Positions 1,541-16,408 of a stretch of 32,000 nucleotides of DNA are shown here, piece by piece. Position numbers and translations under genes: made by a program. This DNA is from Candidatus Thorarchaeota archaeon (GTDB taxonomy: Archaea; Asgardarchaeota; Thorarchaeia; Thorarchaeales; Thorarchaeaceae): contig SHMX01000009.1 in assembly GCA_008080745.1 (NCBI GenBank), positions 1 through 32,000 of the forward strand, given 5' to 3'. The notes beneath the pieces were generated by a model. The model did no database searches. It was not told the DNA's origin and worked only from the letters and a program-made list of their open reading frames with translations. The stretch's first letter is position 1. Every line of letters starts with the position of its first letter.

Positions 1541-1684
1541 TGTGCAATACTGTTATAATCCCTCGATAGCAATTTTCCATCCAAGCTAGCTAGACTACAA
1601 AAAAGCGGCAAATTTCATCCAAAAATCAGCGTTCGTAACCGACACTATATATTGTGACTTTTCGAGTTTCTTCGCGATGCCCGA

Positions 1685-2161: not shown

Positions 2162-2294
2162 AGAAATGGTTCGAATCTCTGGATAGTTTTTAATGATGAT
2201 TTTATCCAAATTATTCTCTTCTCACTCTTAACAGGTCATATAGTATCAAATTGTAGAATCTCAACTGAGATCGTTCTTGATGCATCTGTGTGAT

Positions 2295-2460
2295 TACGCA
2301 TTTTTGCAAATTATGATAAATTTGCGATATGCAGATTCTCATGGAATCTGCAACACAGACGAGCGGGGGAAGGACAAAAGTTACTTACCTCTTCGTCCAC
2401 TGTTGAGCACCCTATTTTCATTTTGCATTGATTATTTGGTTGAGTGGATACTAGGTTTCA
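2295..2460 (+). repeat. 16S-trailer repeat copy 1 (lacks the rRNA part; hairpin 1 doubled)
   Basis: tacgcattttt-gcaaatt..aatttgc-gata-t-gcagattc..gaatctgc-aacacagacgagcgggggaaggac...cttcgtccactgttgagcaccc...ttggttgagtggatactaggtttc. Confidence 0.9.
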
Positions 2461-2496
2461 GATATCCAATCAATAGTGCTAACCCGGCAAAATGGA

Positions 2497-4539
2497 TCAA
2501 TTCTGTTTTTCTTCCTTCATCTCATCCAGAACCTGTTGAGTTTCTGCTAGTTCCCGCAACCTCTCATACTTCTCTCTACGAAGATGTCTGATTGTTACAA
2601 GTACAATCACAGTCGCAACTGAAAGTGATGTCAAGGTTATCGGGAAACTATGATATTGTATGACTTCAAGGAGTGGAACCTGGGGGTCTAAGGGGTTCCA
2701 TCCGTTATAGACCTCCCATCTATCAGAAATATCGTCTCCATCTGTGTCCCAGAGATTGGGGTCTGTTCCGTGAAGGTACTCGTCAAGATTCATTAGTCCA
2801 TCCTCGTCCAAGTCAAAGAATGCATCATCAATTAAGGGATTCAGACCATTAGTGATCTCCCAGTGGTCCGCCATTTGATCACCGTCTGAGTCAGAACTAG
2901 TCGGGTCTGTATTGTATATATTATACTCTTCTGCATCACTTAGAAGGTCTCCATCTGTATCATTGTCGAAACGGTCAGTTCCAATCTCGTTCTCTAGATA
3001 GTCTGGTAATGTATCCCCATCTGAGTCTCCGCAGTCTCCCAACTTGAAGAGAAACCCATTGTCAAATCCGCTGGTTTGGGAGAAGTTCTTGGAGTTAATC
3101 ACTGGAAAGTCCTCCGAAATGGTTTCCCCTACTCCAATGATACATCCATCCTCCGATAGATGTATTGCTCTTGGAGTATCTCCCTTTGACCCCCCTACAA
3201 GTACAGAGTATTGCAACGTGTTGCTGAACTTCACTACAAAACAGTCATCTAATCCTGAGTACATTGAGATATACTGTCCATATATCCGAAAATCTGTTGA
3301 TCTAGTAAATCCCCCGAGATATATTTGGCCTTTAGTATCTACACACACCTCCGATGCTTCATCCATGTTCATCCCTCCTATTAGAGTTGACCATATCAAA
3401 TTATTTTGACTACTATCGAGTCGTAAGATGAACGCATCATTCGTTCCATTCAGAGTTCCATCATACGGGTTGTCTGTCAGAGGGAAATCTTCTGAATAGG
3501 TAGTTCCACAGATGATGATCTCCTCACCTGTGGGAACGATGTTTCTTGGAAAGTCGTCATCACTTCCCCCAATTCTTAGAACGTCTGCGACATCAAATGA
3601 TCTATCCAGAGATACGATGAGGCAGTCAAATTGACCCAGTGACCCCTTAGTTTCAAAGGTCTGTAGTGGATATACTACTTCTGTTGAGTCTGTGTATCCG
3701 TATAATCTGAATATCGCCTGTGTATCGATACAGCAATCTGTACACCTATCCTCTCCATCACCTCCAATCATTCTGGAGACAACTATCGTGTCGGAGGTCA
3801 AATTCCTGATTGTGAAAAACATATCCGATACACCTCCTTTGAATCCTCCTTGGGTGCAGTTGTAGACGGGAAAATCATAACTAAAGGTAGTACCCACTAT
3901 GTATATTTCCCCTTCTTGTAACAGCCCGATTTTTGATGGAAATTCATACGAGTCTCCTCCTATCAGTGATGAATACACAATCGTTCCATTAGCGTCTACC
4001 ACTGTGATGAAGCAGTCTGAATTTTCAATCGAAGGAATTCTATTATATGTCGAGTTTACAATTGGATAATCAGTTGAATATGTGTATCCTGTAACGATGA
4101 TATTCCCGTTTGCATCAAGTGCAATGCTTGTGGGAAAATCGTCTCCGGTCCCTCCAAACCTACTCAAAGCTACGATACTGTCTTCTTCCATATCACCTTG
4201 TATGATTACACAATCATAGTCACTATTATTGCTGATTTTTTTCGCTCCTAGGAAGTCATCAGAATTGGTCCGGCACAATGCATAAATCTCCCCATTTGTA
4301 TCTTCGACGATATCTACAATTCGATCTCGGTAGTCTCCCCCAATGATAGTTGAGTAGTAAAATGGATTAGTTGGTATATTTGATTGAGATTTACAGGTAA
4401 ATATCCCTTCTAACTCTCGATCTTGCCTCTCTATTAGCGAAATGGAAACGTATACCTCTGATACCCCGATACTAACAAATAGAAAAAAAAGAAGAATGAA
4501 ATGAAACTTCTTGAATGTCATATGATATTTCTCAAACAT
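2497..4539 (-). CDS. Membrane-anchored surface protein: SBBP-type beta-propeller repeats + Asp-rich DxDxDG Ca-binding (TSP3-like) repeats + C-terminal TM
   Basis: N-terminal hydrophobic signal; repeated GGxGDDxxxSIAxD blades; DSDGDTLPD/DTDGDLLSD/DSDGDQMAD repeats; hydrophobic C-terminal helix followed by a basic tail. Confidence 0.8.
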   Translation of the reverse strand: MFEKYHMTFKKFHFILLFFLFVSIGVSEVYVSISLIERQDRELEGIFTCKSQSNIPTNPFYYSTIIGGDYRDRIVDIVEDTNGEIYALCRTNSDDFLGAKKISNNSDYDCVIIQGDMEEDSIVALSRFGGTGDDFPTSIALDANGNIIVTGYTYSTDYPIVNSTYNRIPSIENSDCFITVVDANGTIVYSSLIGGDSYEFPSKIGLLQEGEIYIVGTTFSYDFPVYNCTQGGFKGGVSDMFFTIRNLTSDTIVVSRMIGGDGEDRCTDCCIDTQAIFRLYGYTDSTEVVYPLQTFETKGSLGQFDCLIVSLDRSFDVADVLRIGGSDDDFPRNIVPTGEEIIICGTTYSEDFPLTDNPYDGTLNGTNDAFILRLDSSQNNLIWSTLIGGMNMDEASEVCVDTKGQIYLGGFTRSTDFRIYGQYISMYSGLDDCFVVKFSNTLQYSVLVGGSKGDTPRAIHLSEDGCIIGVGETISEDFPVINSKNFSQTSGFDNGFLFKLGDCGDSDGDTLPDYLENEIGTDRFDNDTDGDLLSDAEEYNIYNTDPTSSDSDGDQMADHWEITNGLNPLIDDAFFDLDEDGLMNLDEYLHGTDPNLWDTDGDDISDRWEVYNGWNPLDPQVPLLEVIQYHSFPITLTSLSVATVIVLVTIRHLRREKYERLRELAETQQVLDEMKEEKQN

Positions 4540-4580
4540 TTCCGAAACCTCATTTCATATCTGCTTTATCATGGCTAACT

Positions 4581-6035
4581 TTACAATGTCACTCCTTGAT
4601 TGCCTAAAATGACTGTTATATCTCCAATGTCTGGTTCTTGTGTGTCTGCACAAGCAAACGCTTGAGATACGGTGTCACCATCATCGAGGGCGTCCCAGAA
4701 TGCTTCTGTAAACGATACTCCATCTGCTTGATCAACCGCATCATCAAATGTAACTACTGCATTTTGGTATATAGTAAGGTCCCCAAAGGTTGTCTGTTTT
4801 GAGTGCCAAAGCATTTGATATGGAATACAATCCTCTTCATTTCCTAGTGATGACCACCCTGAGTAACAGTGGAGAAGATACACAAGATATCGATTTGGAA
4901 CGTTTGATGTGATATCTGACGCGTACACATAGGAGATTGGTTGTCCATCATCTATTTGAATACGATTGCATGTGCCAGTATATCCACCATGTCCGACTGA
5001 GAAGAAAACATAGCTTGACGATCTTGTTAGCCACTGACTTTTGGAAGGCTGATTAATATAGACTGCACTATTCAAATTTGAATCCAAAATGTCGTAAACA
5101 TATTCCATAATGTCATATGCCGGATCTCCTGATTCATCTCCACTATAATCTGTATTTACGCTACTTCCTTCGTACTGAATGAGATATCTTCCATCTTTGA
5201 GAAAATCACCTGTCATGGCTGAGATTCCGATCCGACCAAGTTCATTCTCAATAACCCATGTCAGTTTGGCCTCGCTAGGATTTTCAAATTGTGTTATCCA
5301 CTCAAGACTCGTTTTACAGGTTGCGGTATAGCTTGCTGGAAACAATCCAAGATTCACGGCTTTTTGTATTGCTTCACTGGATGTCACACGGCAGGATGGA
5401 TCTGCAAAGTTTTCTGTCCACTTGATAGTGAATGCTGAAACCTCTCCACTGAATGGATTCACTTTTATCCGAATATAATCATCACGACACGGAAATCCTG
5501 ATTCACATCTCTCGATCTCTACGAACCAACCATCACTCCTCTCTCTTGCTGTTGCTCCATCAATTCCACCTAGATGGTTATATTGAGTAGAGAGAAATCT
5601 GAATGCACTGCTTCGTGCTTCCTCCTCCTCTACTAGCCAACAATATGACTCTGAATTTGATACAAGCTTCGACGTATCAATGAATGAAATTAGATTATGT
5701 GAATCACATTCAATTTGGATTTTTCTCATCTGAGCTCCTCTATCCCAGATGATCGTCCAGACCTTTTTGTATGTGGTAGGATCGAAATCTTTCGCAATTC
5801 GTCTTAGAGTCCACTGGTTATCAATTCTCGCAACATAATATGCTTTCTCTATTGCTTCGACGCACTCTTGATCTAGGCCTTCAATTTGCTGCTGAAGTTT
5901 GTTGAGCATATTCCTCTCTAGTGTTGTATTCAGTATTACTTGATTAGGTTGGAAGAATCCAATCCCTACTCCTAGTACAGGCGTACAGATAATCACAACT
6001 ATCAGAATAAAAGTTCCATTCCTATGAAACTCCAT
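4581..6035 (-). CDS. Secreted protein with PepSY/YcdB-like N-terminal part and possible caspase/gingipain-fold C-terminal domain
   Basis: Signal-like N-terminus; W-x-V and IKVNPFSGEV PepSY-like strands; FFSVGHGG and LVYLLHCYSG resemble the His-Gly / Cys dyad motifs of the caspase-hemoglobinase fold. Confidence 0.5.
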   Translation of the reverse strand: MEFHRNGTFILIVVIICTPVLGVGIGFFQPNQVILNTTLERNMLNKLQQQIEGLDQECVEAIEKAYYVARIDNQWTLRRIAKDFDPTTYKKVWTIIWDRGAQMRKIQIECDSHNLISFIDTSKLVSNSESYCWLVEEEEARSSAFRFLSTQYNHLGGIDGATARERSDGWFVEIERCESGFPCRDDYIRIKVNPFSGEVSAFTIKWTENFADPSCRVTSSEAIQKAVNLGLFPASYTATCKTSLEWITQFENPSEAKLTWVIENELGRIGISAMTGDFLKDGRYLIQYEGSSVNTDYSGDESGDPAYDIMEYVYDILDSNLNSAVYINQPSKSQWLTRSSSYVFFSVGHGGYTGTCNRIQIDDGQPISYVYASDITSNVPNRYLVYLLHCYSGWSSLGNEEDCIPYQMLWHSKQTTFGDLTIYQNAVVTFDDAVDQADGVSFTEAFWDALDDGDTVSQAFACADTQEPDIGDITVILGNQGVTL

Positions 6036-6420
6036 ATTATCCTTCCTCCGAAATTATGTTTTACCCCTTTACAAATTAATATATATATATCTATATATCT
6101 TTCATAATCTCCGTCATTTAAAACAGTTTGCTCGTTGTGATTGATGTAAGGGGGTTGAACCAATTTATTTCAGTAGTGGCTAAGCCTGTTGTCCTTGGTT
6201 TCAGTCATACTATCTATGGATTTGAAACATGAATTAATAAAATCAGTCTATGAAATGGCCATTGTCTTTAGTCCGACTGGATCTAGGTCTAGAACTCTAG
6301 GGAATTCTATATGTTATTGAATTATGACTATACTGAAAAAACAAAATGAAATAACCCAAAGACTGATTTAGATAATCTAGATTGTAGTACTTGAAATTAG
6401 TTTGAATTGTAACTAGAGAA

Positions 6421-7188
6421 TTGATTGTGATGATGACAATTGCACCAAGGATGGTAGGAGATTATCCATTCAACACTGACGATGCCACTGCCTTAGTTTC
6501 ACTGCTGGATGGGAAAATTGGGGAGAATTTGAAACGGATGATGTTGGATTTCTATCCTGAAACTATTTCCCAATTATTTTCAGATCCTGAAAAATCCCGT
6601 TTGGAAGCTCTTGCAGGATATGCAAATCTTCAGAGAGCACTTCGACAGATTCAATTAGATGAATCAATTTTCTCAACTGTCCAAAACAAATATGGTTCTG
6701 TTATCTATGCGAATTTATCTTTTTCCTTGAAATCATTAGAAACTCTGATAACCCCTCTCCTGATGTCTGTTACTCAGCCCACCTCGATCGAATATGAGCT
6801 TTCTGATGAGCAATTAGATGAATTAACGGAGCAGTTGAGGTCATTTGTACTCAATTCTCAAGACTTTCCCGATGCTACTCGATTGAAGGAAACAGGAAAC
6901 CAGGACCTATTGTCCGAACTGGTAATGGCGTTCAATATTGGATTATTCATTGTCCTCGTCTTTCTGGTGATCAATTTAGCCAAATCCAAACATGAATTAT
7001 CTGACGTGCAGATATCCGAAATTGAAACTCTCCTTCGTGATTGGTCTCAAGAAGTCCTAGCTCAACTCACTCTCTTCGGACCTGTGAAACCTCAAGATGT
7101 ACACACTATTAGCTTGGTTGGAATTGATGCTGATGAAGAGGATGTAGAGCTTGCTGATTCATTCTCTGGATATGTAGATGAGGAGTAG
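6421..7188 (+). CDS. Hypothetical protein overlapping the mazF start; candidate non-canonical partner
   Basis: 255-aa ORF with a hydrophobic stretch and acidic tail; overlaps the mazF ORF by 11 nt. Confidence 0.65.
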   Translation: MIVMMTIAPRMVGDYPFNTDDATALVSLLDGKIGENLKRMMLDFYPETISQLFSDPEKSRLEALAGYANLQRALRQIQLDESIFSTVQNKYGSVIYANLSFSLKSLETLITPLLMSVTQPTSIEYELSDEQLDELTEQLRSFVLNSQDFPDATRLKETGNQDLLSELVMAFNIGLFIVLVFLVINLAKSKHELSDVQISEIETLLRDWSQEVLAQLTLFGPVKPQDVHTISLVGIDADEEDVELADSFSGYVDEE

Positions 7189-7555
7189 ATTGATAGTGTC
7201 CTCTCCATCATCTTTCAATGTTGGAGATATTGTATTTGTAGATTTAGAACCTGTAAAGGGGCATGAACAGGGCAGAAATCGTCCTTGTGTAGTTGTTGCA
7301 ATTCCCACCAAGCAATCCTCTGGCCGAGGGCATTTTAATCTCCTTATAGTGGTCCCTCTAACATCACGTGAGCGGAGATGGTGGACTGTGGTCAAAATCC
7401 CTAATCAATCTGGACTTATTTCAGTATCTTATGCACTCTGTCATCAGATTCGGTCTATTTCCACAAAACGTGTTTTGAATACCACAGGTGCGATTCGGAA
7501 TAAAGATCTTATGAAGATTCGAATTGTCTTGGGTGGTGTACTCTCGATTCCCTAA
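7178..7555 (+). CDS. mazF: MazF/PemK family endoribonuclease toxin
   Basis: GDIVFVDLEPVKGHEQGRNRPCVVV, IVVPLTS, SYALCHQIRSIS: PemK/MazF signature motifs. Confidence 0.92.
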   Translation: MRSRLIVSSPSSFNVGDIVFVDLEPVKGHEQGRNRPCVVVAIPTKQSSGRGHFNLLIVVPLTSRERRWWTVVKIPNQSGLISVSYALCHQIRSISTKRVLNTTGAIRNKDLMKIRIVLGGVLSIP

Positions 7556-7696
7556 ATCACCTCCTACGCATTTCATGCAAATTTCCAAGAAATTTGCGAT
7601 AACATACAGACGAGCGGGGGTCGGACAAACAGTTACTTGCCTCTTCGTCCACTGTTGAGCACCCTTTCATTTTCTTTATTCTTGTCAGGATGAGTG
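7556..7696 (+). repeat. 16S-trailer repeat copy 2 (starts at ATCACCTCCT directly after the mazF stop)
   Basis: atcacctcctacgcatttcat-gcaaattt..aaatttgc...cagacgagcggggg...cttcgtccactgttgagcaccc. Confidence 0.9.
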
Positions 7697-7787
7697 AAGG
7701 TCAAAATTTTATCAATTCTGATTCTATCTCCCTAAAACTTTTTTAATAACTCTCATCATTATTGTTATACATTCTGGTGGGATTTGA

Positions 7788-9158
7788 TTGCAAATAGAAG
7801 TATACTTTGCTCAACTACGTAAGAGAGTGGACTGGATAGGACCCAAGTGCCTTATTGCAATGATCGGTCTATCCTTGGTACTGCTAATTGCTACCGTTGA
7901 AACGTCTCTCATTGAGGAGCCATTTGATTTCTCCACAACCCTTTCAAGCATCGGTGTTGTAGCATCTGTCTTCACCTTCGGAATCCCCTTTTCAATTGGA
8001 GCTGTGGTGATGTGGACTACACCAAAAGCTCACCAATCCATGTTGCGCACAGAACCAACCTCCTCATACATAAGAAGAACCTATCTCTCTCGGTTGATTC
8101 TCTCAACAGGACTGTCTTTCTCTGTTCTCTTCATCGGTGCCCTCGTCGGATTTGTGATCTATGGTGGAGATTTCACCTATTTCCCCTCGGTTCTTGTAGC
8201 CTCTCTTCTGGTTGGCATGATGCTTACTCTCTTGGTCTTTTCCCTTGCTCTATACTTGGACTCGCCAAAGTACACTCTTGTGATATCCACCTTGTTGTTC
8301 CTGTTTCTATCCTTTGAATTTGGTTGGTCTCCTCGGTCTGCAGATGACATATTCTCTCTCTGTACTCCGTATCATCTTTTCAGATATCTTGCTGTAATCC
8401 TGTCTGGATACCAATTTCCTCATGAGCAGGCAATGGAGCACTACATGGGAGTATATGCTGACTTCACCGTTCTACTAGGTCCTCTTCTGCTGTGGAGCAT
8501 AGCATCTGTGTTCTCAATCCTCGGATCATTATATCTGTTGAAGGGGAATATGATGCAATGGAGGAAGGAGTCATCTACGTGGGATGATGGAGCCCTTGGT
8601 TCAATGGAATCTCAACCTTCAGGTATGGTCGTTCATACTCATAAAAGAATCAAGATCATGGCAATGTTGATCGTGATACTCTTTTCGGCAGCTACCATAT
8701 TCAATACAGTCCTAATTCCTGCTGGTAGACAGATTCCAGAGGAGTTCTATCTCTATCAGAGTCCGGAAACGGGGGAACCAATCACTCTTGGCTCATGGAT
8801 GTACGATTCAGTCTACATCTCAGACACCCTTCTCTCACAGACAGATGGTTTCACATTGATGGTCACTATTCTGGAATGGGGTGGATATAGTGGGGATGAT
8901 GGCCTCCAAGTCAAGTATGATATGGTTTCTCTCTCAGTATCACAATTCGAAGCGATGAACGAAACTGAACGTGAAGATGCTATTTATCCCACTTCTCGAG
9001 GTCTAACTCCCGATAGACCCGCAACAGGTCCTGGCGTGCAACATTCGATAGATGATGCTGGCACCTATCTATGGGCTTTTCGATTTACGGATACATCTAA
9101 CGAAACTGCTGCCTATACCATAGTAGTGTTCATTGAAATATACTTCAATCCTGTCTAA
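7788..9158 (+). CDS. Multi-pass membrane protein (ABC-2 permease-like) with C-terminal extracellular domain
   Basis: About 7 hydrophobic segments, a PYHLFR loop, and a soluble C-terminal ~140 aa. No ABC ATPase is adjacent. Confidence 0.55.
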   Translation: MQIEVYFAQLRKRVDWIGPKCLIAMIGLSLVLLIATVETSLIEEPFDFSTTLSSIGVVASVFTFGIPFSIGAVVMWTTPKAHQSMLRTEPTSSYIRRTYLSRLILSTGLSFSVLFIGALVGFVIYGGDFTYFPSVLVASLLVGMMLTLLVFSLALYLDSPKYTLVISTLLFLFLSFEFGWSPRSADDIFSLCTPYHLFRYLAVILSGYQFPHEQAMEHYMGVYADFTVLLGPLLLWSIASVFSILGSLYLLKGNMMQWRKESSTWDDGALGSMESQPSGMVVHTHKRIKIMAMLIVILFSAATIFNTVLIPAGRQIPEEFYLYQSPETGEPITLGSWMYDSVYISDTLLSQTDGFTLMVTILEWGGYSGDDGLQVKYDMVSLSVSQFEAMNETEREDAIYPTSRGLTPDRPATGPGVQHSIDDAGTYLWAFRFTDTSNETAAYTIVVFIEIYFNPV

Positions 9159-9288
9159 TCATCTGAATTAGTAATCGATAAATGCAGGAGTTTTCCCGTT
9201 ACTAATAATATTTATTAGATAGATAATAATATTCTGTTAGTGTGGTTGGAATTGAAATGTTTCGTAGATACGAGATGTTATTCTTATC

Positions 9289-9960
9289 ATGGGAAATGAG
9301 ATTATGAAATTAGGAAGAATACCTACTCGTGTAGGTGCTATGCTATTTGTAGTTCTTTTTGTGATATATGCTAATCCGACTCTAGTTGCAGCTACATTTG
9401 GTGGAAGTGACACTCCAAGTTATGATGTATCTTCTGGAAGTGGAGGAGAATATGATATTGTTCGTGCGAATTCTGCCAATGGTGTTTGTGAAATTCGTGT
9501 TAAAGAAAAGAGTTGGCCTGCATCCTACCCGGATGACTACGTAGGATATGCATACGTTGGTGTGGAATTTGTTCCTACCGAGGATATCGGTAACAACTGG
9601 AAGCTTATGGCCAGTTGGGATTTGGAATATGAACTGAAAGCAAATTGGTGGAGTTGCATTCGAATTGATGTGGTACATTCTGTTCGTGATGAGAATTACA
9701 ACAGACTCTGGCCTTCCCAATCCAAATATAGTGTTGAACTAGCATCAACTGGTATATTCTATGAATCTACAGGTGCTGATTACTCGGGTTCCACAACTGC
9801 ACAGTGGGGTATTGATTTGGATGAAGGCGAAACATACTATTTCTGCATAGAGTTGCTGATTACTGTAGTAAATGGTGGTGCAGTATTTGCTACTAGCTAC
9901 TATGATTCCGACGATCCTGTGTCTTTGACAGTTAATTCCATTTCGTGGAGCTATCTCTAG
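9289..9960 (+). CDS. Secreted hypothetical beta-rich protein
   Basis: Signal peptide (AMLFVVLFVIYANPTLVAA) followed by a Ser/Tyr/Trp-rich domain. Confidence 0.7.
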   Translation: MGNEIMKLGRIPTRVGAMLFVVLFVIYANPTLVAATFGGSDTPSYDVSSGSGGEYDIVRANSANGVCEIRVKEKSWPASYPDDYVGYAYVGVEFVPTEDIGNNWKLMASWDLEYELKANWWSCIRIDVVHSVRDENYNRLWPSQSKYSVELASTGIFYESTGADYSGSTTAQWGIDLDEGETYYFCIELLITVVNGGAVFATSYYDSDDPVSLTVNSISWSYL

Positions 9961-9979
9961 GAATCCAAACTTTTTCTTG

Positions 9980-10012
9980 GAATCAAGATAATGATATCTT
10001 GATTCTTTTTTT
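9980..10012 (+). terminator. Hairpin + T-tract terminator-like element
   Basis: Perfect 11-bp stem gaatcaagata-atga-tatcttgattc followed by T7, 20 nt after the stop of 9289..9960. Confidence 0.6.
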
Positions 10013-10047
10013 GGGATTCCGACTTGATCCATCTGGTTTCAATGTCC

Positions 10048-10268
10048 TATCTCTAACAAGGTATCCGTAGCGGAAGCTGCGGATGGATCATCTCCTACGC
10101 ATTTTTCGCAGATTTTACAAAATCTGCAATAACAGACGAGCGGGGAAGGACAAACAGTTACTTACCCCTTCGTCCACTGTTGAGCACCTTTTTCATTTTT
10201 GCAATGATTATCCTGTTGAGTGGCAACTAAGTTTCCAGACTCTGGAGATAGTCCCAGATGGCGATGAT
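10048..10268 (+). repeat. 16S-trailer repeat copy 3 (full length, with rRNA part and coding tail)
   Basis: tatctc-taacaaggtatccgtagcggaagctgcggatggatcatctcct-acgc...cctgttgagtggcaactaagtttccagactctgg. Confidence 0.95.
10054..10096 (+). rRNA. 16S rRNA 3'-terminal fragment (helix 45 + anti-SD), not a full gene
   Basis: Matches the universal SSU 3' end TAACAAGGTA-CCGTAG-GGAA-CTGCGG-TGGATCACCTCCT, with one C>T change in the anti-SD. Confidence 0.9.
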
Positions 10269-10439
10269 GGTTTTTTCTTTAATCGCAGGTGTTACTGAGA
10301 GTCTTATCGCACTTGGGTTGCAACGGGTCACGGACGGTTCCGCCAATGCAATGTCTGTGTTTCCACACAATCAACTCCAAGTTTATTAGATACCAACTAA
10401 ATCATCATCTGTACAGATTGTTCTATGAGGTCGATTCTC

Positions 10440-10808
10440 ATGCCTGAAGATGAAAAAAGAGAACTGGTACGATTCACATATCAATACAGCCCTGATTTTA
10501 GAGAAGAATATGTTACAGGGGCTCGTGGTGGCATCCAAAACATATACCACCTTAGACTTGATTTCTATAATGAACGATCCAAATTACGTTCTCTTGAGGA
10601 TTCACTTGTTGAAGATACTGATGGCTCACGAAGAATCGAACCCACGGAATCATCAAATGAGCCAGATATCATTGAGCGTACATTCAAAGTGGGATTGGTG
10701 TTATCCTTCAATGCTGTTCGTGAACTTTCTCGATTTCTCGCAGAAAAAGTGAAAGAGATAGATGAGATTGAGAGAAAACTCGCTAAGCAAATTACTGGTG
10801 GTGAATAA
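10440..10808 (+). CDS. Hypothetical protein, DUF3467-like
   Basis: YSPDFREEYVTGARGG...LRLDFYNER and VGLVLSFNAVRELSRFL resemble this small family. The stop is 4 nt before the next ATG. Confidence 0.55.
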   Translation: MPEDEKRELVRFTYQYSPDFREEYVTGARGGIQNIYHLRLDFYNERSKLRSLEDSLVEDTDGSRRIEPTESSNEPDIIERTFKVGLVLSFNAVRELSRFLAEKVKEIDEIERKLAKQITGGE

Positions 10809-10812
10809 AGAG

Positions 10813-11130
10813 ATGATTGATGATGAACACTATGCAAAGGGTCATTCAGATACGGGTACAACTAATCCTGATTGGTACAAGCTAGGTTCGATATCGGATA
10901 TGATATCTAGTTCCAGTATTACCCATATTCATATGGATTCAACTGCATCCACTTCAGCTGATAGTACTCGTTCTACTAAATCATCATCTATTGACAGTCT
11001 GATGAAACTGTTTGGAATATTGGATGAAGAAACTGCAGATGCTATTGAGGATGCCATTGAAGAGTATCGTAAACGTCATGACAAAGCAATGACTAGAAGA
11101 ATCCAGGAGCGATATCATGATCCTTCTTGA
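10813..11130 (+). CDS. VapB-like antitoxin with Ser/Thr-rich N-terminus
   Basis: The C-terminal SLMKLFGILDEETADAIEDAIEEYR resembles the toxin-binding helix of archaeal VapB. It overlaps the vapC start. Confidence 0.6.
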   Translation: MIDDEHYAKGHSDTGTTNPDWYKLGSISDMISSSSITHIHMDSTASTSADSTRSTKSSSIDSLMKLFGILDEETADAIEDAIEEYRKRHDKAMTRRIQERYHDPS

Positions 11131-11512
11131 TACTAGTTTCGTGATAGATCTCATGAGAGGAAATACTGATTGTATGAAGTTGCTTCAAGATACTGAAGCC
11201 AGAGAGGAGGATGTTTTTCTGTCTACCATATCTGTCTACGAATTACTCGTAGGTGTTGCTCATGCAGATAATAAAATAGATGAAGAGCAGAAAATACGGG
11301 AATCTCTATCAGCAATTACCACCATCGATTTCGATAAGTATTCATCCTACGAATCGGGTACCATCTATTCAGAACTGAAGTCGCAAGGTTCTATGATCAA
11401 CTCTTTTGATATTCTCATTGCTGGTATTGCACGAAGACATAACTATTCTGTCATGACTCGAAATGGATCTGATTTCAATCGAATAAATGGTCTTCAAGTT
11501 ATTGAATACTAG
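11117..11512 (+). CDS. vapC: VapC PIN-domain ribonuclease toxin
   Basis: MILLDTSFVID, ISVYELLVG, FDILIAGIA, VMTRNGSDFNRI: PIN acidic tetrad motifs. Confidence 0.93.
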   Translation: MILLDTSFVIDLMRGNTDCMKLLQDTEAREEDVFLSTISVYELLVGVAHADNKIDEEQKIRESLSAITTIDFDKYSSYESGTIYSELKSQGSMINSFDILIAGIARRHNYSVMTRNGSDFNRINGLQVIEY

Positions 11513-11541
11513 TTTCTGTTTTTCATTTCGTAATCATTGTT

Positions 11542-11732
11542 TATCTCTAACAAGGTATCCGTAGCGGAAGCTGCGGATGGATCACCTCCTACGCATTTTA
11601 TCGCGAATTCTCATGGAATTCGCAAAACAGACGAGCGGGGGAAGGACAAACAGTTACTTACCCCTTCGTTCACTGTTGAGCACCCTTTTCATTTTTGCAA
11701 TGATTATCCTGTTGAGTGGCAACTAGGTTTCA
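11542..11732 (+). repeat. 16S-trailer repeat copy 4 (full rRNA part)
   Basis: tatctc-taacaaggtatccgtagcggaagctgcggatggatcacctcct-acgcatttta...gttgagtggcaactaggtttc. Confidence 0.95.
11548..11590 (+). rRNA. 16S rRNA 3'-terminal 43-nt fragment (helix 45 + anti-SD), not a full gene
   Basis: TAACAAGGTATCCGTAGCGGAAGCTGCGGATGGATCACCTCCT; 10-bp stem TATCCGTAGC/GCTGCGGATG closing a GGAA loop. Confidence 0.93.
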
Positions 11733-11784
11733 CGTGTATCCTTATATCCGTCAAAATCTAACTACTCTTAGAGGTCTGATTCCC

Positions 11785-11982
11785 TTGGCTACAAAGACTA
11801 TCACCATTTCAGAAGAGGTCTATAACCTATTGGAGAAGATGCTCCTTCCGGGTGAGAAGATAGAGGATGCGATACTCCGCCTGTGTGGTATCAAGAGTAG
11901 TCTTCATGATTCTGATTTTGAAAAGGGTCTCGAAAAGATCATCACTGAAGATGCAGAGCTTCTCAAACGACTTGCAAAATAG
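11785..11982 (+). CDS. Antitoxin (DUF217/VapB-type N-terminus) paired with Doc
   Basis: TTG start; ATKTITISEEVYNLLEKM...KIEDAILRL; C-terminal FEKGLEKIITEDAELLKRLAK; 1-nt overlap with doc. Confidence 0.8.
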   Translation: MATKTITISEEVYNLLEKMLLPGEKIEDAILRLCGIKSSLHDSDFEKGLEKIITEDAELLKRLAK

Positions 11983-12383
11983 TGCGTGGTGCATACTTCG
12001 TGAGATATTTGACCTATGATGAGATCCTGTCTATCCATGACCGTTTGATAGAATTCTTTGGTGGCGAGAGTGGTGTTTTTTCGGTCAATGCATTGGAGAA
12101 CTGCGTATCCCTCCCTATGATGTCAGTATTTGGAACTGAGACCAATCCCACAATCTGGTCAAAAGCTGCAGCACTTCTTTATTGTATACTCATTCGTCAT
12201 CCCTTTGTTGATGGAAATAAGAGGACTGCTTGGACCGCTGCGAAGCTCTTTCTCTATCTCAATGGATATGACCTACAAGTTGACGTGGATGATGCCTAGG
12301 CAAAGATTCTCAGGATACTGAAGGAAGCGTCATCAAATGATTCGATTGCAGAATGGCTTGAACAGTGTTCTACGAAAATATAG
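11982..12383 (+). pseudogene. doc: Doc (Fic-family) toxin with premature in-frame TAG
   Basis: HPFVDGNKRTA Doc motif. TAG at 12297-12299 is followed in frame by AKILRILKEASSNDSIAEWLEQCSTKI*, the usual Doc C-terminal helices. Confidence 0.85.
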
Positions 12384-12398
12384 TTTCTTCATTGCTTT

Positions 12399-12539
12399 CT
12401 ATGCATTTTTCGCAAATTCCATGAGAATTTGCAAAACAGACGAGCGGGGGAAGGACAAAAGGTACTTGCCTCTTCGTCCACTGTTGAGCACCCTTTCTTC
12501 TTTTGCAATGATTGTCTGGTTGAGTGGATCATAGATTTC
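12399..12539 (+). repeat. 16S-trailer repeat copy 5 (no rRNA part)
   Basis: ctatgcatttttc-gcaaattc..gaatttgc-aaaacagacgagcgggggaaggac...ctggttgagtggatcatagatttc. Confidence 0.92.
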
Positions 12540-12803
12540 GCATTCTTATTGTGACCGTTCATTGTTTATTGGACAATCTTGGACATCAGAGCGTTGGCCT
12601 CCCAGGTAACGGCACTGGGTGAGACTCTGTCCTGGTCAGGGATACTATGTCTTTCAACCATATCTTTCCTCCGTATCAAGCTATATAAACCCCTATCGGA
12701 ATCGGTCCAGCAATATCCAAGTTTTAAGAAGATGTTCGCAACCCCTTACTTGTTGAAATTGTTGATTTTATATGTATATGTACTCATATGTATGGTGATC
12801 GAA

Positions 12804-13046
12804 ATGGCAAAGAACATCGCTTTGGCAGAAGATGTCTACAGAGACCTCAAACGTATGAAAAGAGAGGGTGAAAGTTTTAGCGACCTGATTCGAAGACTGT
12901 TGAAGACAAGAGGGGCGATTTCCGACCTTGCAGAATCTGCGACACTCAGTACTGAAGAATGGTTGGAGATGAAAAGACTGAAGGAAGAACAAGCGGCTCT
13001 TGATGAGAGCCGAACAGATATTCTTCTCTCAAAACAAGAAGGGTGA
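12804..13046 (+). CDS. vapB: VapB antitoxin (DUF217-type)
   Basis: MAKNIALAEDVYRDLKRMKREGESFSDLIRRLL; GGTGA SD-like motif at 12794. Confidence 0.88.
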   Translation: MAKNIALAEDVYRDLKRMKREGESFSDLIRRLLKTRGAISDLAESATLSTEEWLEMKRLKEEQAALDESRTDILLSKQEG

Positions 13047-13052
13047 TTTTTC

Positions 13053-13457
13053 GTGCCACTCTTTGATACGAGCTTTCTCATAGATCTCACTAGAGGTGAC
13101 GTTGGTGCTATATCCGCCGCAAAACAGGTCGATGGAACCGCTGACATTAAAGCGGTATCTGTGGTGACGGTCCACGAGTATTTACGAGGGGTCTATTATC
13201 ACCACATCGGGAAGAAAACGCTGGATGGTAAGCTCCGTAAAGCTCTCACAGATCTTGCGCATTTTGAACAACTGGAATTCACTCCCTCCATTGCACGAGA
13301 AGCTGCATATACCGATGCTCTGTTACTCAAGCATGGAACTACGATTCCCTATGCTGATGTTGTAATTGCAGCAACCGCAAAGCATCACAATATCCCTTTG
13401 GTCACACGTGATGCTCATTTCAGAGCTATTGATGATATTGTATTGATAGACTACTAG
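13053..13457 (+). CDS. vapC: VapC PIN-domain ribonuclease toxin
   Basis: LFDTSFLID, VTVHEYLRG, ADVVIAATA, LVTRDAHF. Confidence 0.92.
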   Translation: MPLFDTSFLIDLTRGDVGAISAAKQVDGTADIKAVSVVTVHEYLRGVYYHHIGKKTLDGKLRKALTDLAHFEQLEFTPSIAREAAYTDALLLKHGTTIPYADVVIAATAKHHNIPLVTRDAHFRAIDDIVLIDY

Positions 13458-13465
13458 ATGCCCTA

Positions 13466-13501
13466 GTATCCGTGGCGGAAGCTGCGGATGGATCACCTCC
13501 T
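13466..13501 (+). rRNA. 16S rRNA 3'-terminal fragment (helix 45 + anti-SD), not a full gene
   Basis: Same as copy 4 except one A>G change that converts an A-U pair to G-U. Confidence 0.9.
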
Positions 13502-13632
13502 ACGCATTTTGCAGATTCATGATAATCTGCAGTATAGACGAGCGGGGGAAGGACAAAAGTTACTTGCCTCTTCGTCCACTGTTGAGCACCCTTTCATTTT
13601 TGCAATGATTGTCTGAATGAGTGTGAACTAGA
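13466..13632 (+). repeat. 16S-trailer repeat copy 6 (rRNA part from helix 45)
   Basis: gtatccgtggcggaagctgcggatggatcacctcct-acgcatttt-gcagatt..aatctgc...ctgaatgagtgtgaactag. Confidence 0.95.
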
Positions 13633-13698
13633 CTCTTGTGTTTCTCTATTGATCTGGAATAGTATCATTTCTATTTCCGATTATTCCATGAATCCCGC

Positions 13699-13998
13699 TT
13701 AGTCCGATTGTTGACTTATATTTCTGTATTGCCATAGTAGGTCCACTACTAATCCCATAAGAATTGCTGAGTCAAAGAATATTGCATTTGGATTTACGAG
13801 CATGAAATGCCCTACCGTAAATACACACCATCCAATCATGCACATGAGAAGGAAATAGACTGTCCTTTTTTGCTGCTTAAGTTTTTCATCCTCTTCATAT
13901 TCGTTCACCAGTTTCCAGAGTGTACCTCTTCCAATGATACAGATGAAAAAAAGCAGTGTAAACGCGGTTCCGTGAATTGCTGCTACTAGTGTTTGCAT
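13699..13998 (-). CDS. Small membrane protein (3 TM)
   Basis: Three hydrophobic segments in 99 aa. Confidence 0.55.
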   Translation of the reverse strand: MQTLVAAIHGTAFTLLFFICIIGRGTLWKLVNEYEEDEKLKQQKRTVYFLLMCMIGWCVFTVGHFMLVNPNAIFFDSAILMGLVVDLLWQYRNISQQSD

Positions 13999-14184
13999 AT
14001 CTTTCTCTCCATATCTCCGAATATTCTCAGATTGGTGGACTCAACCAAACTCGATCATCATGATATCCACCATAAGGTGCTGCATCACATTGATGTTGGT
14101 AGTCATAGATTGCGGAAAACGGATATAACAGTCCCCATTCGTAGTCCATGACATCGAAATGAACGAATGATGTATCCCCATCCC

Positions 14185-14283
14185 TTCTATTGCACAGTCA
14201 ATTTGGTTGAGTATGAACTAGGTCTCCAGAGTTCGCAGGTAGTTTCAGGCGGTGATAGATTCGCCTCTTGAAAGAACAGTGAT
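14185..14283 (+). repeat. Right-end-only copy of the 16S-trailer repeat with coding tail
   Basis: ttctattgca...tttggttgagtatgaactaggtctccagagttcgcagg...gatagattc...gaaagaacagtgat aligns to 16020-16120. Confidence 0.7.
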
Positions 14284-14323
14284 TTTATAATCTCTCATAC
14301 ACATACATACACGAGTGAACAAT

Positions 14324-14566
14324 ATGGGGTACAAGACAATCTCACTCTCTGAGGAAGCCTATGCTATTTTGAAAAAAGCAAAACGCGAGAATGAGAGTTT
14401 TAGTCAAGTTGTTATCAGGCTCGCACAAAGACGAACATTGAGTGATTTCATAGGATGCATCTCAGAAGAATCAGTAAGTAAACTGACTTATGCACTAGCT
14501 GACTTCAGACAAGAACGGTCCAAGGTCTGGTCAAAAAGCATGGAAGAGTTGGTGAAGGACCAATGA
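14324..14566 (+). CDS. vapB: VapB antitoxin (DUF217-type)
   Basis: MGYKTISLSEEAYAILKKAKRENESFSQVVIRL; ATGA overlap with vapC. Confidence 0.9.
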   Translation: MGYKTISLSEEAYAILKKAKRENESFSQVVIRLAQRRTLSDFIGCISEESVSKLTYALADFRQERSKVWSKSMEELVKDQ

Positions 14567-14955
14567 TTGCGGACTCGAGTTTTGTTATTGATATTATGCG
14601 AAATGATGAATCGGCACTACAGAAACTTGAACTGATAAAAACGAGTCAGAGTCCTCAATATCTAACATCTCCAACAGTAATGGAACTTGCGGCAGGTATA
14701 TCTCTGGCAAGACTACCAAATAGAGAACAGAATCGAATCGATATTATCATGGAAGAATTCCAAATACTTCCCCTTGACACGGCATCTGCATGGTGGGCAG
14801 GTCTGGAGCTTGGCCGGTTGAAGAGAGAGGGGATGATTGTTGATCCAATCGATGCACAGATTGCTGGCATTGCAGTCAAACATCAGGAAATTGTTGTGAC
14901 CCGAAATATCCGACATTTTGAACGATTCAAAGACTTGAGTGTAGAGTCATACTAA
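14563..14955 (+). CDS. vapC: VapC PIN-domain ribonuclease toxin
   Basis: MIADSSFVID, TVMELAAG, IDAQIAGIA, VVTRNIRHFERF. Confidence 0.93.
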   Translation: MIADSSFVIDIMRNDESALQKLELIKTSQSPQYLTSPTVMELAAGISLARLPNREQNRIDIIMEEFQILPLDTASAWWAGLELGRLKREGMIVDPIDAQIAGIAVKHQEIVVTRNIRHFERFKDLSVESY

Positions 14956-14988
14956 TTCTGATTTCAGATTGAATTAGTCCTTTCAACT

Positions 14989-15108
14989 CGCAGATCTAGA
15001 AAATCTACAAAACAGATGAGCGAGGGAAGGTTGATGTTTCTATCCCTCACATCACTGTTGAACACTCTATTTTCATTTTTGTTATTATCTGACCGAGTGT
15101 AGCTTAGA
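14989..15108 (+). repeat. 16S-trailer repeat copy 7 (divergent)
   Basis: cgcagat..atctacaaaacagatgagcgagggaagg...tccctcacatcactgttgaacactctattttcattttt...gaccgagtg. Confidence 0.8.
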
Positions 15109-15176
15109 GTTTAGGTCTATCTCTAGATACTACATAAGAGTCATATACACTGTCATATATAGTATACATGATTACA

Positions 15177-15479
15177 ATGGCACATGTGTTGTCAGTTCGC
15201 TTGGATGAAGACTTGGAGAAACGTCTTGCATTCCTGATGGAGAAACGTAAGATAGTAGACAAGTCAGCCTATGTTCGTCGTTTGATTGATCGTTCACTTA
15301 GAGAAGACCTTCTTGACTTCCTCTCTGGGGAGATTGCTGCAAAACGTATTAGTATGTGGAAGGCTTCTTCAATAGCAGGAATCTCGTTGAGAGCAATGAT
15401 GATTGAGTTAGCAAAACGCGAAATCTCCATCTATGATGAACAATCACTGAAGGAAGATCTGCTCTTTGCAGAGGGATAA
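15177..15479 (+). CDS. RHH / UPF0175-like antitoxin
   Basis: VLSVRLDEDL RHH strand; ISMWKASSIAGISL...SLKEDL UPF0175-like C-terminus; adjacent to a DUF3368 PIN gene. Confidence 0.8.
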   Translation: MAHVLSVRLDEDLEKRLAFLMEKRKIVDKSAYVRRLIDRSLREDLLDFLSGEIAAKRISMWKASSIAGISLRAMMIELAKREISIYDEQSLKEDLLFAEG

Positions 15480-15482
15480 TTC

Positions 15483-15980
15483 ATGATAGGAGTTGTGAAT
15501 TCCTCACCTCTCATTTACTTGGGGAAGCTTGGTCTTGTTAATCTATTGAATGAACTCTTCGATGGCGTATTCACAACGCGTTCTGTGATGAATGAAGTGC
15601 TTGATGATACATCACCCGAGTTTGCTATTCTCACAGATGCCTTTGCATCATGGTTGAATCTGTCTGATGTCATAATATCTCCTCTCTCTACAAAACTCTG
15701 TGAAATGGGGTTACATCAAGGCGAAGTAGATGTAATCACTCTTGCATTCGATATGAGAGAGAAAGGGCCAGTTGTGATTATTGATGATCTTGCGGCACGG
15801 GATATTGGAAGAACTCTTGGATTGTATATAACTGGAACAATTGGAATCATATTGCGTGCTGTGAAAAACAATATGCTCTCCAAAACAGATGCTGTTGTCA
15901 AGCTAAACTATCTCGTACAAGAAACTCCGTTCCGTATCTCTACTAAACTGTACTTGCAAATCTTAGAACAGCTGAGATAA
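15483..15980 (+). CDS. DUF3368-type PIN-domain protein (putative toxin)
   Basis: VVNSSPLIYLGKLG, LHQGEVDVI, IIDDLAAR, ITGTIGIIL, FRIS. Confidence 0.88.
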   Translation: MIGVVNSSPLIYLGKLGLVNLLNELFDGVFTTRSVMNEVLDDTSPEFAILTDAFASWLNLSDVIISPLSTKLCEMGLHQGEVDVITLAFDMREKGPVVIIDDLAARDIGRTLGLYITGTIGIILRAVKNNMLSKTDAVVKLNYLVQETPFRISTKLYLQILEQLR

Positions 15981-15985
15981 TCATG

Positions 15986-16122
15986 CTTCCCCTCGCGTTC
16001 ACTATTGAGCACCCTATTTTTATTTTTGCAATAGTTACTCGGTTGAGTGTTCACTAGGTTTCTAGACTCTGCAGGAAGTCCCAAATGGAAATAGATTCTC
16101 CTCCGGAAAGAACAGTGATCTC
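15986..16122 (+). repeat. 16S-trailer repeat copy 8 (right half plus coding tail)
   Basis: cttcccctcgcgttcactattgagcaccctatttttatttttgcaa...cggttgagtgttcactaggtttctagactctgcagg. Confidence 0.85.
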
Positions 16123-16159
16123 ATTTTCGCTTATACACCTACATACATGAGTGAACAAT

Positions 16160-16270
16160 ATGGGAAACAATATAATCTCACTCTCTGAGGAGGCCTATGC
16201 ACTTCTGCTCCATCCTCAATGGTGTTACTCATGCTCGCGAGGAGTCGGAAATTTCTGGTATTGGAAATGA
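16160..16270 (+). pseudogene. Truncated vapB antitoxin remnant
   Basis: MGNNIISLSEEAYALL matches MGYKTISLSEEAYAIL (14324), upstream region included, then loses homology. Confidence 0.75.
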
Positions 16271-16408
16271 GTCTTTCACTCCAATCATCTGTAGGTCTAT
16301 CTCTCTGAGCGAATTATCGTAGCGGTTCAACCTCAAAAACACGAAACGCGAAACATAGAAATGTGTTTACTCATATTATTTTTCGAATCTGCTTGGGATG
16401 GAGATACC

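Follow-up and report, generated by a model that had tools for sequence, protein, structure and literature searches.

Stacks of former gene ends, variably truncated at their 5' sides and interspersed with cargo, trail behind an intact gene in the arrays of orphan ends at rhs/CDI loci and in the WHO elements at yeast FBA1. In WHO elements the displacement is driven by a homing endonuclease, and in both rhs/CDI and WHO arrays the displaced ends are protein-coding. The ends of RNA genes are used in Prochlorococcus, where tycheposon-built islands consist of tandem integrative elements at tRNA/tmRNA 3' ends (bioRxiv 10.1101/2020.12.28.424599). Integrons, archaeal attC clusters included, have been treated by Ghaly et al. 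2022 (PMC9668308), and the HeimM2 element of Ca. Heimdallarchaeum, which is 8 kb long and carries a homing-endonuclease-like gene, is positioned between a 16S and a tRNA gene (Wu et al. 2022, PMC8813620).

The locus considered here lies within a window of 32,000 nt at the start of contig C9 of a Candidatus Thorarchaeota genome (G000). As in tycheposon islands, an RNA gene end appears to serve as the landing site, modules are bounded by partial copies of it, newcomers would displace older modules inward, degenerate remnants without an integrase pile up, and the cargo is adaptive or defensive. Unlike islands at tRNA ends, however, the target is the 16S 3' end together with its processing trailer, the modules contain one to three genes with none for integration or replication, a search of the genome for tyrosine recombinases found none, and the repeated segment, at 130-500 nt, is long as well as mosaic. 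The locus is like integrons in its co-oriented cassettes of ~1 kb that each end in a structured repeat, in its frequent toxin-antitoxin cassettes, and in that most arrays have no integrase nearby; it differs in that no IntI was found, the repeat is an rRNA trailer in which no imperfect palindrome of the attC type was seen, the cassettes appear to have their own promoters, and the platform is an rRNA gene rather than attI with Pc. HeimM2 is likewise a mobile element exactly behind the sole 16S gene of an Asgard archaeon, but it is one element, and no array of trailer copies has been described for it. In contrast to rhs/CDI and WHO, the displaced unit here is the end of an RNA gene, with its processing and terminator signals. 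No published description of such an array was found in the literature searched, and to that extent an earlier note on this DNA, which knew of no described prokaryotic array on this site, is borne out. An rRNA gene end in a gene-capture role across an Asgard family would represent a new class of landing pad.

The repeated element

Between 2295 and 16270 the window contains nine trailer copies, all on the + strand, three of which are partial or degenerate; the nine direct copies separating gene blocks that the earlier note had reported are thus present where it had placed them. The element is ~130-190 nt long and the copies flank gene blocks of 0.8-5.3 kb, with one copy standing after every module. 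Copies start at 2295, 7556, 10048, 11542, ~12391/12399, 13466, 14989, and 15986, and only a 3' half, itself degenerate, is present at ~14160-14235; the core-to-core distances are 5252, 2525, 1496, 808, 1098, 1476, and 947 bp. The earlier note had also raised the question of whether the repeats are scattered genome-wide. When a long copy was used as the query in a whole-genome BLASTN search (3.16 Mb), matches were confined to the array and the end of contig C2, where the genome's single 16S gene has its 3' terminus; the repeat is therefore not a dispersed MITE, and that candidate was rejected.

The element is the 16S 3' end plus its processing trailer. It begins with the last 0-42 nt of 16S and continues through a hairpin and the 3' strand of the pre-16S processing helix to an oligo-T tract. 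The 16S part comprises the last 42 nt (helix 45 and the anti-SD) in copies 10048 and 11542, 35 nt in copy 13466, and 10 nt in copy 7556, and it is absent or only a degenerate trace in the remaining copies, giving a series of 5' truncations at 42, 42, 35, 10, and 0 nt. (The SSU rRNA terminus that the earlier note had recognised as the 5' part of the long copies is longest in copies 10048 and 11542, and shorter, decayed, or absent in the others.) The true 16S end (42 nt) and the 34 nt of true trailer that are assembled behind it all match copy 11542 exactly, and the 77-mer with which C2 terminates recurs at C9:11548-11624.

The 16S leader is complementary to the rest of the repeat, which marks that part as the 3' strand of the processing helix. 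The predicted duplex between 16S leader and trailer has an energy of -75.5 kcal/mol, compared with -42.4 ± 5.2 for shuffles, and pairing with the leader is retained in six of the seven trailer copies tested. In five relatives (G002, G003, G004, G014, G017) the reverse complement of the core is present upstream of 16S, at a distance of ~140-155 nt in the two relatives measured. This extended complementarity, together with the 34 identical nucleotides, supports the earlier suggestion that the remainder of the element is the 16S 3' trailer. (The predicted leader-trailer duplex has only a symmetric 3x3 internal loop between GC-rich helices; a clear 3-4-3 motif, as in the canonical bulge-helix-bulge cleavage site, was not identified.) The family-wide core, CACTGYTGAGCACC, ends the 3' processing-helix strand in the trailer copies. 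It is 93% conserved among copies, compared with 47-76% for the rest of the element, and is conserved across at least 10 genera. In hairpin 1, changes among the copies are compensatory.

Organization of the array

Trailer copy 1 (2295..2460, +) is almost without a 16S part and has a duplicated hairpin 1 followed by the stem strand; its 3' portion contains the core CACTGTTGAGCACC, the oligo-T tract, and a right end of the form GAGTGG..ACTAGG. Cassette E (2497..7555), with genes on both strands, encodes by Pfam a 680-aa SBBP/TSP3 repeat protein (-) and a 484-aa DUF4901 protein (-), and on the + strand a 255-aa protein of no known family and MazF (7178-7555); the MazF end and its copy are orthologous in contig C168 of the congener G001. 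Copy 2 (7556..7700, +) opens with the last 10 nt of 16S, abutting the MazF stop codon. Cassette D (7788..10032, mixed strands) contains genes for 456-aa and 223-aa proteins, neither of which was assigned a family by profile search, and a 95-aa ORF (-). Its counterpart in G001:C14 has 82-83% identity and a different neighbour on the right. In copy 3 (10048..10245, +) 42 nt from the end of 16S, altered once in the anti-SD, precede the full trailer.

Cassette A (10425..11512, +) consists of three genes, encoding by Pfam a 127-aa protein without an assigned family, a VapB-like protein, and PIN/VapC, and is 68-69% identical to G001:C81. It is followed by copy 4 (11542..11735, +), whose identity to the true 16S end is described above, and by cassette B (11716..12299, +), a VapB-type antitoxin and Doc/Fic toxin pair (Pfam) that is 85-88% identical to G001:C81 with different neighbours there. 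In copy 5 (12391..12530, +) the 16S part has decayed. A multicopy element of ~107 nt (12554..12660), whose depth is ~7 times that of its flanks and which has related sequence at several contig ends, is inserted ahead of cassette C (12579..13457, +; Pfam, VapB and PIN/VapC), a cassette with relatives in G001, G270, and G003. Copy 6 (13466..13635, +) retains 35 nt of the 16S end.

Cassette F (13699..13998, -) contains a 99-aa membrane-like ORF with only a weak DUF5367 match, and is followed by the degenerate 3' half (14160..14235, +), with a decayed core, oligo-T, and a GAGT..ACTAGG end. Cassette G (14315..14955, +) is a further VapB and PIN/VapC pair (Pfam), with relatives in the arrays of G012 and G042. 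Copy 8 (14989..15110, +) is diverged and without a 16S part; its second hairpin is preserved by compensating changes, and its leader pairing is weakened. Cassette H (15168..15980, +; Pfam, a UPF0175 antitoxin-like protein and a DUF3368/PIN-like toxin) has a relative in the G267 array. Copy 9 (15986..16065, +), only the 3' third of the element, forms the distal end of the array. The remnant of a VapB gene start (16041-16207) follows it, and then the gene for an FG-GAP/invasin-like surface protein of 1849 aa (16361..21910, +; Pfam), which is a conserved distal flank in the genus; the same junction of array and surface protein is present in G001:C111.

Pfam agrees with the toxins named in the earlier note: MazF, three PIN/VapC, Doc, and DUF3368. 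The distance from stop codon to repeat is 0 nt for MazF, 6 nt for DUF3368, 9 nt for the VapC ending at 13457, 30-36 nt for the VapC ending at 11512, 34 nt for the VapC ending at 14955, and ~92-100 nt for Doc, so that of six copies said to begin within ~40 nt of a toxin stop codon, five do so and the copy behind Doc does not. The location of copies in toxin 3' UTRs could mean that they are kept mainly for an RNA function: the UTRs might mimic the 16S end (helix 45 and the anti-SD) as a decoy, or pair with the leader and so be processed by the rRNA-maturation enzymes. The strong leader complementarity kept by six of seven copies and the compensatory changes in hairpin 1 are in line with such a role, but the 16S fragment is missing or decayed in most G000 and G001 copies and is therefore not required, many cassettes of relatives have no toxin, and the compensation may be inherited from functional trailers. 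That the copies are kept mainly for such a function is considered very improbable.

Position of the array and support for the assembly

In G003, G004, G012, G042, and G162 the array lies directly behind the 16S gene on the same contig, so that an intact gene stands at the head of modules bounded by partial gene ends, and the genes distal to these relatives' arrays are syntenic with C9:23.8-37 kb. In G000 the 16S contig and the array contig are separate in the assembly, and the position of the array downstream of 16S is supported by this synteny and by an assembly-graph link from the 16S body to copy 11542. The expectation that the array would be found downstream of the 16S gene is borne out on these grounds. 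The repeats also explain the frequency with which 16S genes of these genomes stand at contig ends and are lost from bins.

Since the genome is a metagenome bin and contigs end at repeats, an assembly artefact, or a local tandem duplication without mobility, might be suspected. However, Logan contigs (contigs, not reads) from two marine-sediment runs, both probably of the source sample and hence not independent support, cover the whole array at even depths of ~47x and ~130x, with breaks only at repeats, and a 7-kb contig spans copy 2295. From this uniform depth it follows that the cassettes are single-copy parts of one organism. In addition, the cassettes are mutually unrelated in sequence, and the same architecture is present in independent assemblies of at least 15 genomes. 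An artefact or immobile duplication is accordingly regarded as exceedingly improbable.

Distribution and mobility across the family

The core 14-mer is present in 31 of 76 other genomes of the family, often as 2-6 matches clustered on one strand; outside the family there are five single matches in 224 genomes, and a reversed-pattern control gave four matches in 301 genomes. The largest arrays have 10 copies. As the earlier note had proposed examining, cassette content and order do differ across related genomes: the order is A-B-C in G000 versus C-B-A and D-C in the congener G001, and the small, co-oriented cassettes have cargo that varies by genome, spanning VapBC and other toxin-antitoxin pairs, mercury resistance (a mer operon), an ABC transporter, a methyltransferase, and hydrolases. 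Between genera with 90-93% identity in their 16S genes, one cassette reaches 91%, and vertically inherited neighbouring genes at that inter-genus distance are 71-78% identical. Comparison of these genomes shows, at the level of sequence, modules that have been gained, lost, reordered, and laterally exchanged. The arrays thereby provide a visible channel of gene flow between genera in the archaeal lineage closest to eukaryotes, as well as a marker locus for strain-level variation.

Movement of the modules

The reading preferred here, with a probability of about 0.58, is that genes have accreted as cassettes on the 3' end of the sole 16S gene, forming an array in which trailer copies act as portable homology. 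A copy beside incoming or resident DNA would recombine with the true trailer or with any array copy, and whole modules would then be inserted, excised, or shuffled, possibly through unequal exchange, by ends-in insertion, or by way of circles that loop out and re-enter. Gene conversion would hold the copies close to the host's own trailer. Each copy probably doubles as terminator and 3' UTR of the preceding module, each module would supply its own TATA-like promoter, and the toxin-antitoxin pairs probably guard the array against loop-out deletion, as in chromosomal integrons. The engine is likely to be the general recombination machinery, and a dedicated recombinase would be unnecessary, which points to a form of accessory-gene assembly that may do without an integrase.

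A dedicated recombinase is less favoured than homologous recombination, or unequal exchange, among trailer copies, since the copies are mosaics with scattered breakpoints and profiles for tyrosine recombinase, IS110, HUH, and reverse transcriptase (PF00589, PF01548, PF01797, PF00078) found nothing in this 98%-complete genome; PF00589 at E<=0.01 gave no match in the whole of G000, nor in G012 or G020. Within the window the profile search found no recombinase, in agreement with the earlier note, and no integrase was found in the arrays of G000, G003, G004, and G012 examined by Pfam. Breakpoints within the mosaic copies fall at several positions, and when G000 and G001 share a cassette, the copies that follow it are not always each other's closest. 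The left boundary of cassette-linked homology is at the core in six of six informative comparisons; the right boundary precedes the core by 45-70 nt in three pairs and lies beyond it in three others. Homologous recombination explains the scattered internal breakpoints no less well than an attachment site would, and it is also favoured by the repeats of one genus, which reach ~360 nt into the neighbouring convergent gene. Against it, an identical block of 15-30 nt offers little length for homologous recombination to work efficiently from genus to genus, no recombination intermediate was observed in the contigs covered, and the conservation of the core together with the left boundary at the core is as expected of a site-specific enzyme acting there.

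Such an enzyme is the basis of an integron-like explanation, in which the core and oligo-T end of the trailer would be the att site of a dedicated but unrecognised recombinase, with its gene elsewhere in the genome or brought in by a virus or plasmid, and cassettes would move as circles with one copy each. The conserved core and its fixed left boundary argue for this, as do the small, co-oriented cassettes in arrays of up to 10 copies. In addition, G001 contig C81 closes by a 64-nt overlap into a 3051-bp cycle of three cassettes, and some relatives are rich in tyrosine recombinases (eight in G004). These enzymes of G003 and G004 are, however, encoded on other contigs away from the arrays; G012 has an array, yet no tyrosine recombinase was found in it; and the serine recombinase matches of G000 are only on other contigs, C16 and C1, the C1 match looking IS607-like because it is ~2 kb from a TnpB-like gene. 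The scattered right boundaries and internal breakpoints also speak against it, and no attC-like palindrome was seen in the repeat: either strand forms a row of local hairpins without an end-to-end stem, and words resembling GTTRRRY (GTTGAGC, GTTGAGT) recur in direct orientation only. The earlier proposal of an integron-like or tandem-integration array with the repeat as recombination or attachment site is largely supported: its array features have held up, but no IntI or other tyrosine recombinase was found in the genome and no attC-like palindrome was seen. The integron-like explanation is a tentative one, possible but on the unlikely side. Somewhat doubtful, too, is the idea of an undescribed recombination system, lacking any known integrase and perhaps coupled to Asgard-specific rRNA-processing or recombination proteins, whose attachment site would be the conserved core of the processing-helix strand; if true, archaea would have a functional counterpart of the integron, with an independent origin at the end of an rRNA gene.

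Compared with recombination between trailer copies, sequential displacement of the 3' end is improbable. Here DNA from relatives would recombine within 16S on one side and join illegitimately on the other, each event replacing the 16S end with its trailer and shoving the old end downstream, and a LAGLIDADG endonuclease from a 16S intron might be the trigger. As in such stacks of former gene ends, the 16S remnants are variably 5'-truncated (42, 35, 10, and 0 nt); a LAGLIDADG gene is present inside an intron of this 16S; and the fully compensated hairpin-1 variants resemble snapshots of functional trailers from different lineages. However, no endonuclease gene was found in the cassettes examined, and the same 42-nt left boundary is seen in three different cassettes, which illegitimate joins would be unlikely to repeat. 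Nor is the new end tied to cargo on the downstream side only: cassettes B, D, and E keep their downstream copy in both G000 and G001 despite a different next cassette, and the persistence of cassette B and its right-hand copy as one unit is not predicted by displacement alone. As displacement would have it, pieces of the neighbouring convergent gene have been duplicated along with the trailer in G003 and G012.

The repeat and the 16S rRNA 3' end

A repeat search of the window resolves the element described in the earlier note into eight overlapping repeat families, every one of them on the + strand. In an alignment of the copies, which are named here by their start positions in the window, the first part comes from the 16S 3' end and varies in length: it measures 42 nt in 10048 and in 11542, 35 nt in 13466, and 10 nt in 7556, and is decayed or absent in the others. 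This is followed by ACGCATTTT, hairpin 1, a G-rich segment able to fold as hairpin 2, the 14-nt core CACTGTTGAGCACC, an oligo-T tract (TTTTCATTTTTGCAA), and, in the genus of the source genome (G000), about 40 further nt ending GAGTGG..ACTAGG. Copy 14185 consists of a decayed 3' half alone and copy 15986 of the 3' third alone. An Rfam scan of the window yielded no family reaching its gathering score.

The sole archaeal SSU rRNA gene of the source genome lies at the end of another contig, C2, whose terminal 77 nt (42 nt of 16S, a shared T, and 34 nt of trailer) are identical to positions 11548-11624 of the window's contig, C9, within copy 11542. The 16S leader carries sequence complementary to both the core and the G-rich segment, and the predicted leader-trailer duplex has an energy of -75.5 kcal/mol, compared with -42.4 ± 5.2 for 200 shuffles. 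This pairing is kept at -66 to -80 kcal/mol by six of the seven copies tested; for the diverged copy 14989 the value is -48. In five relatives (G002, G003, G004, G014, and G017), the core's reverse complement is also present upstream of 16S, at a distance of about 140-155 nt in the two measured. The leader complementarity and the identity with the 16S end thus identify the repeat as the strand that forms the 3' side of the pre-16S processing helix, with a terminator-like T tract behind it, in keeping with the earlier suggestion that the rest of the repeat is 16S trailer. No canonical bulge-helix-bulge motif was identified in the predicted duplex. (The 16S gene itself, L001:4939-7349 [G000:C2:589938-592348], is 2411 nt long against a 1478-position model, because of an insertion encoding a 262-aa LAGLIDADG-type protein, ORF L001:5902-6690; the insertion has the look of an rRNA intron that carries a homing endonuclease.)

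Across the genus's 16 copies, identity averages 93% in the core, 76% in the stem strand, 61% in hairpin 1, and 47% in the 16S piece. Copies that lie behind the same cassette in G000 and in its congener G001 are not consistently each other's closest relatives; the copies are therefore mosaics. Hairpin 1 shows full compensatory changes; of the 20 pairs predicted for the element as a whole, 7 have double changes. Such compensation need not imply selection on the copies, since it is expected if each of them preserves the state of a trailer that was functional in some other lineage; the same explanation can hold for the strong conservation of the core.

The right end of the repeat differs between genera. 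In genus g12, the repeated unit continues for about 360 nt within the convergent gene next to it, and in G003 a 221-aa C-terminal fragment of that neighbour has been duplicated along with the trailer. In G000, the minus strand of three copies encodes a common peptide with the terminus ...LQSLET*, but in one of the three a stop codon interrupts it, and the genome contains no intact gene as its source. A right end derived from the C-terminus of a convergent gene is therefore unsupported there, unlike in other genera, where the repeats do run into a convergent gene of about 1700 aa.

Location and distribution of the array

BLASTN against all 19 contigs of G000 finds the element only in the window array and at the extreme end of C2, and thus not scattered through the genome like an ordinary MITE. 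(Five of these contigs, C14, C15, C17, C18, and C19, are short, with 62-65% G+C against about 41% in the rest of the bin, and are probably contamination.) C2 and C9 are unjoined in the assembly. However, three lines of evidence place the array at the locus downstream of the 16S gene, where the earlier note had proposed to look for it: a k=77 link in the assembly graph connects the 16S body with copy 11542; a single contig holds 16S, the true trailer, and further trailer copies in G003, G004, G012, G042, and G162; and the genes just past the arrays of G162 and G012 (hemerythrin etc.) are homologous to C9:23.8-37 kb, just past the G000 array. In G012 (G012:C2:80561-83864) and G020 (G020:C2:34-2965), the 23S gene follows 16S on the same strand at a distance of 59-80 kb; in G000 it is found at 71 kb on C9 (G000:C9:71161-74266). 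In these three genera 16S and 23S have the same orientation without being linked, and the cassette array occupies the 16S side of the stretch between them.

The array is real and family-wide. The exact core 14-mer occurs in 31 of the 76 other family genomes, where 2-6 occurrences on a single strand of the same contig are common. In 224 genomes of the phylum outside the family there are five single matches, about the chance expectation; the reversed pattern, used as a control, gives 4 matches in 301 genomes. When three mismatches are allowed in the core search, arrays of 4-10 copies with a spacing of about 1 kb are seen in G229, G003, G021, G270, G150, G267, G252, G162, and G019. G002 and G020 have the true trailer only, within the 15-20 kb assembled downstream. 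The copies in each genome resemble that genome's own trailer, and trailer length and sequence vary between genera.

Genes within the cassettes

Pfam assigns MazF to 7178-7555, VapB/VapC pairs to 10762-11512, 12579-13457, and 14315-14955, a VapB-type antitoxin with Doc to 11716-12299, and UPF0175 with DUF3368 to 15168-15980. The remaining blocks encode secreted repeat proteins, proteins of no known family, and a PLD/DrmC-like nuclease (1104-1466), which is the sole NCBIfam/PADLOC match found for the family-less cassette proteins; the others have no match in either. Six copies had been described as starting within about 40 nt of a toxin stop codon. This holds for five toxins, whose stop codons lie 0-36 nt ahead of a copy, but not for Doc, whose stop is about 92 nt ahead. 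Between every copy and the next start codon, the sequence contains an AT-rich, TATA-like stretch, a putative promoter of the module.

Two details of individual cassettes deserve mention. The partner of MazF (6421-7555) is an overlapping upstream 255-aa protein without a known family, instead of a small MazE. At 12554-12660, ahead of the VapB gene of cassette C, there is an element of about 107 nt with roughly 7x the depth of its flanks; related sequence is found at the ends of contigs C1, C10, and C11, and it looks like the solo end of a multicopy insertion element.

Reordering and exchange of cassettes

The earlier reading of a cassette array built on the 16S end is borne out. Both content and order, whose comparison had been proposed, differ: the order is D-A-B-C in G000, and C-B-A (contig C81) and D-C (contig C14) in G001. 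The two ends of C81 (L032, G001:C81:1-3115) are identical over 64 nt, so that the contig closes into a 3051-bp cycle. It comprises three cassettes (VapBC, Doc, and VapBC) with a trailer copy on each. A circular molecule, duplication of the C cassette, or a mixture of two strains in the bin could each account for this.

Cargo also varies between genera. In G003 the first cassette, directly behind 16S (L024:4858-7654, on G003:C2), is a mercury-resistance operon that encodes a regulator of the ArsR type, an HMA-domain MerA, and MerB. G012 carries an ABC transporter and two VapBC pairs, and G004 a methyltransferase, an S9 peptidase, VapBC, and a hydrolase. A conserved block adjoins the 16S trailer in G004 and lies behind two cassettes in G003 (L023:3749-12202, L024:9388-17724). 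It encodes a convergent protein of about 1700 aa that belongs to no known family, a protein of 580 aa whose zinc-ribbon domain is of the Cas12f/TnpB type, and a ClpP-like protease of the SDH type, and is itself flanked by trailer copies. Particular cassettes reappear across genera, in other arrays and at other positions. A g6 genome and a g3 genome share one with 91% identity over 1059 nt. The 16S genes of these two genera are 90-93% identical, and vertically inherited neighbouring genes at that distance 71-78%; we read this cassette as a case of lateral exchange.

The closest described systems are islands that grow as elements such as tycheposons integrate one after another at the ends of tRNA genes (bioRxiv 10.1101/2020.12.28.424599); integrons, whose attC clusters, mostly integrase-less, are reported as enriched in Asgard archaea (PMC9668308); and HeimM2, a single element directly behind the only 16S gene of Heimdallarchaeum (PMC8813620). 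None of their descriptions includes arrays of rRNA trailer copies, and full-text literature searches found no published description of such arrays. The feature is accretion at an RNA gene end, a kind already known, in a form for which no published description was found.

Mechanism of cassette movement

Consistent with the earlier statement that the window lacks a recombinase, Pfam finds none there. Throughout the G000 genome (98% complete) there is no match to Phage_integrase, IS110 DEDD, Y1/HUH, or RVT_1, and G012, which has an array, lacks a tyrosine recombinase. Resolvase-domain matches in G000 number only two, on contigs C16 and C1; the latter looks IS607-like because it lies about 2 kb from a TnpB-like gene. 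Where the same cassette has different neighbours, shared homology on the upstream side begins at the core in six of six cases. This sharp left boundary is what a site-specific enzyme acting at the conserved core would leave. On the downstream side, however, homology stops 45-70 nt short of the core in three pairs and only after the core or oligo-T in three others. Such scattered breakpoints, together with long, variable, mosaic repeats and the absence of a recombinase gene, fit homologous recombination, unequal exchange, and gene conversion between trailer copies, which would move the cassettes; we give recombination between copies a probability of roughly 0.58. A site-specific enzyme, for which the left boundary speaks, is the less likely mechanism.

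Other origins find no support. For a group II intron or reverse transcriptase, the G000 genome lacks an RVT_1 match, and for TnpB, a TnpB-like gene is part of the block by 16S in G003 and G004 but none is near the G000 array. An attC-like reading of GTTRRRY words was dropped since these occur solely as direct repeats.

In Logan contigs (assembled contigs of public runs) from two sediment runs, probably the source sample, depth is uniform over every cassette; such contigs cannot show rare circular junctions or excisions. In each run, one contig joins window position 616 to 10336, skipping 9.7 kb, at about 20% of the local depth. This joint, on which none of the readings above draws, has just 33 nt on its shorter side and no homology at its ends; strain variation or an artefact may lie behind it.
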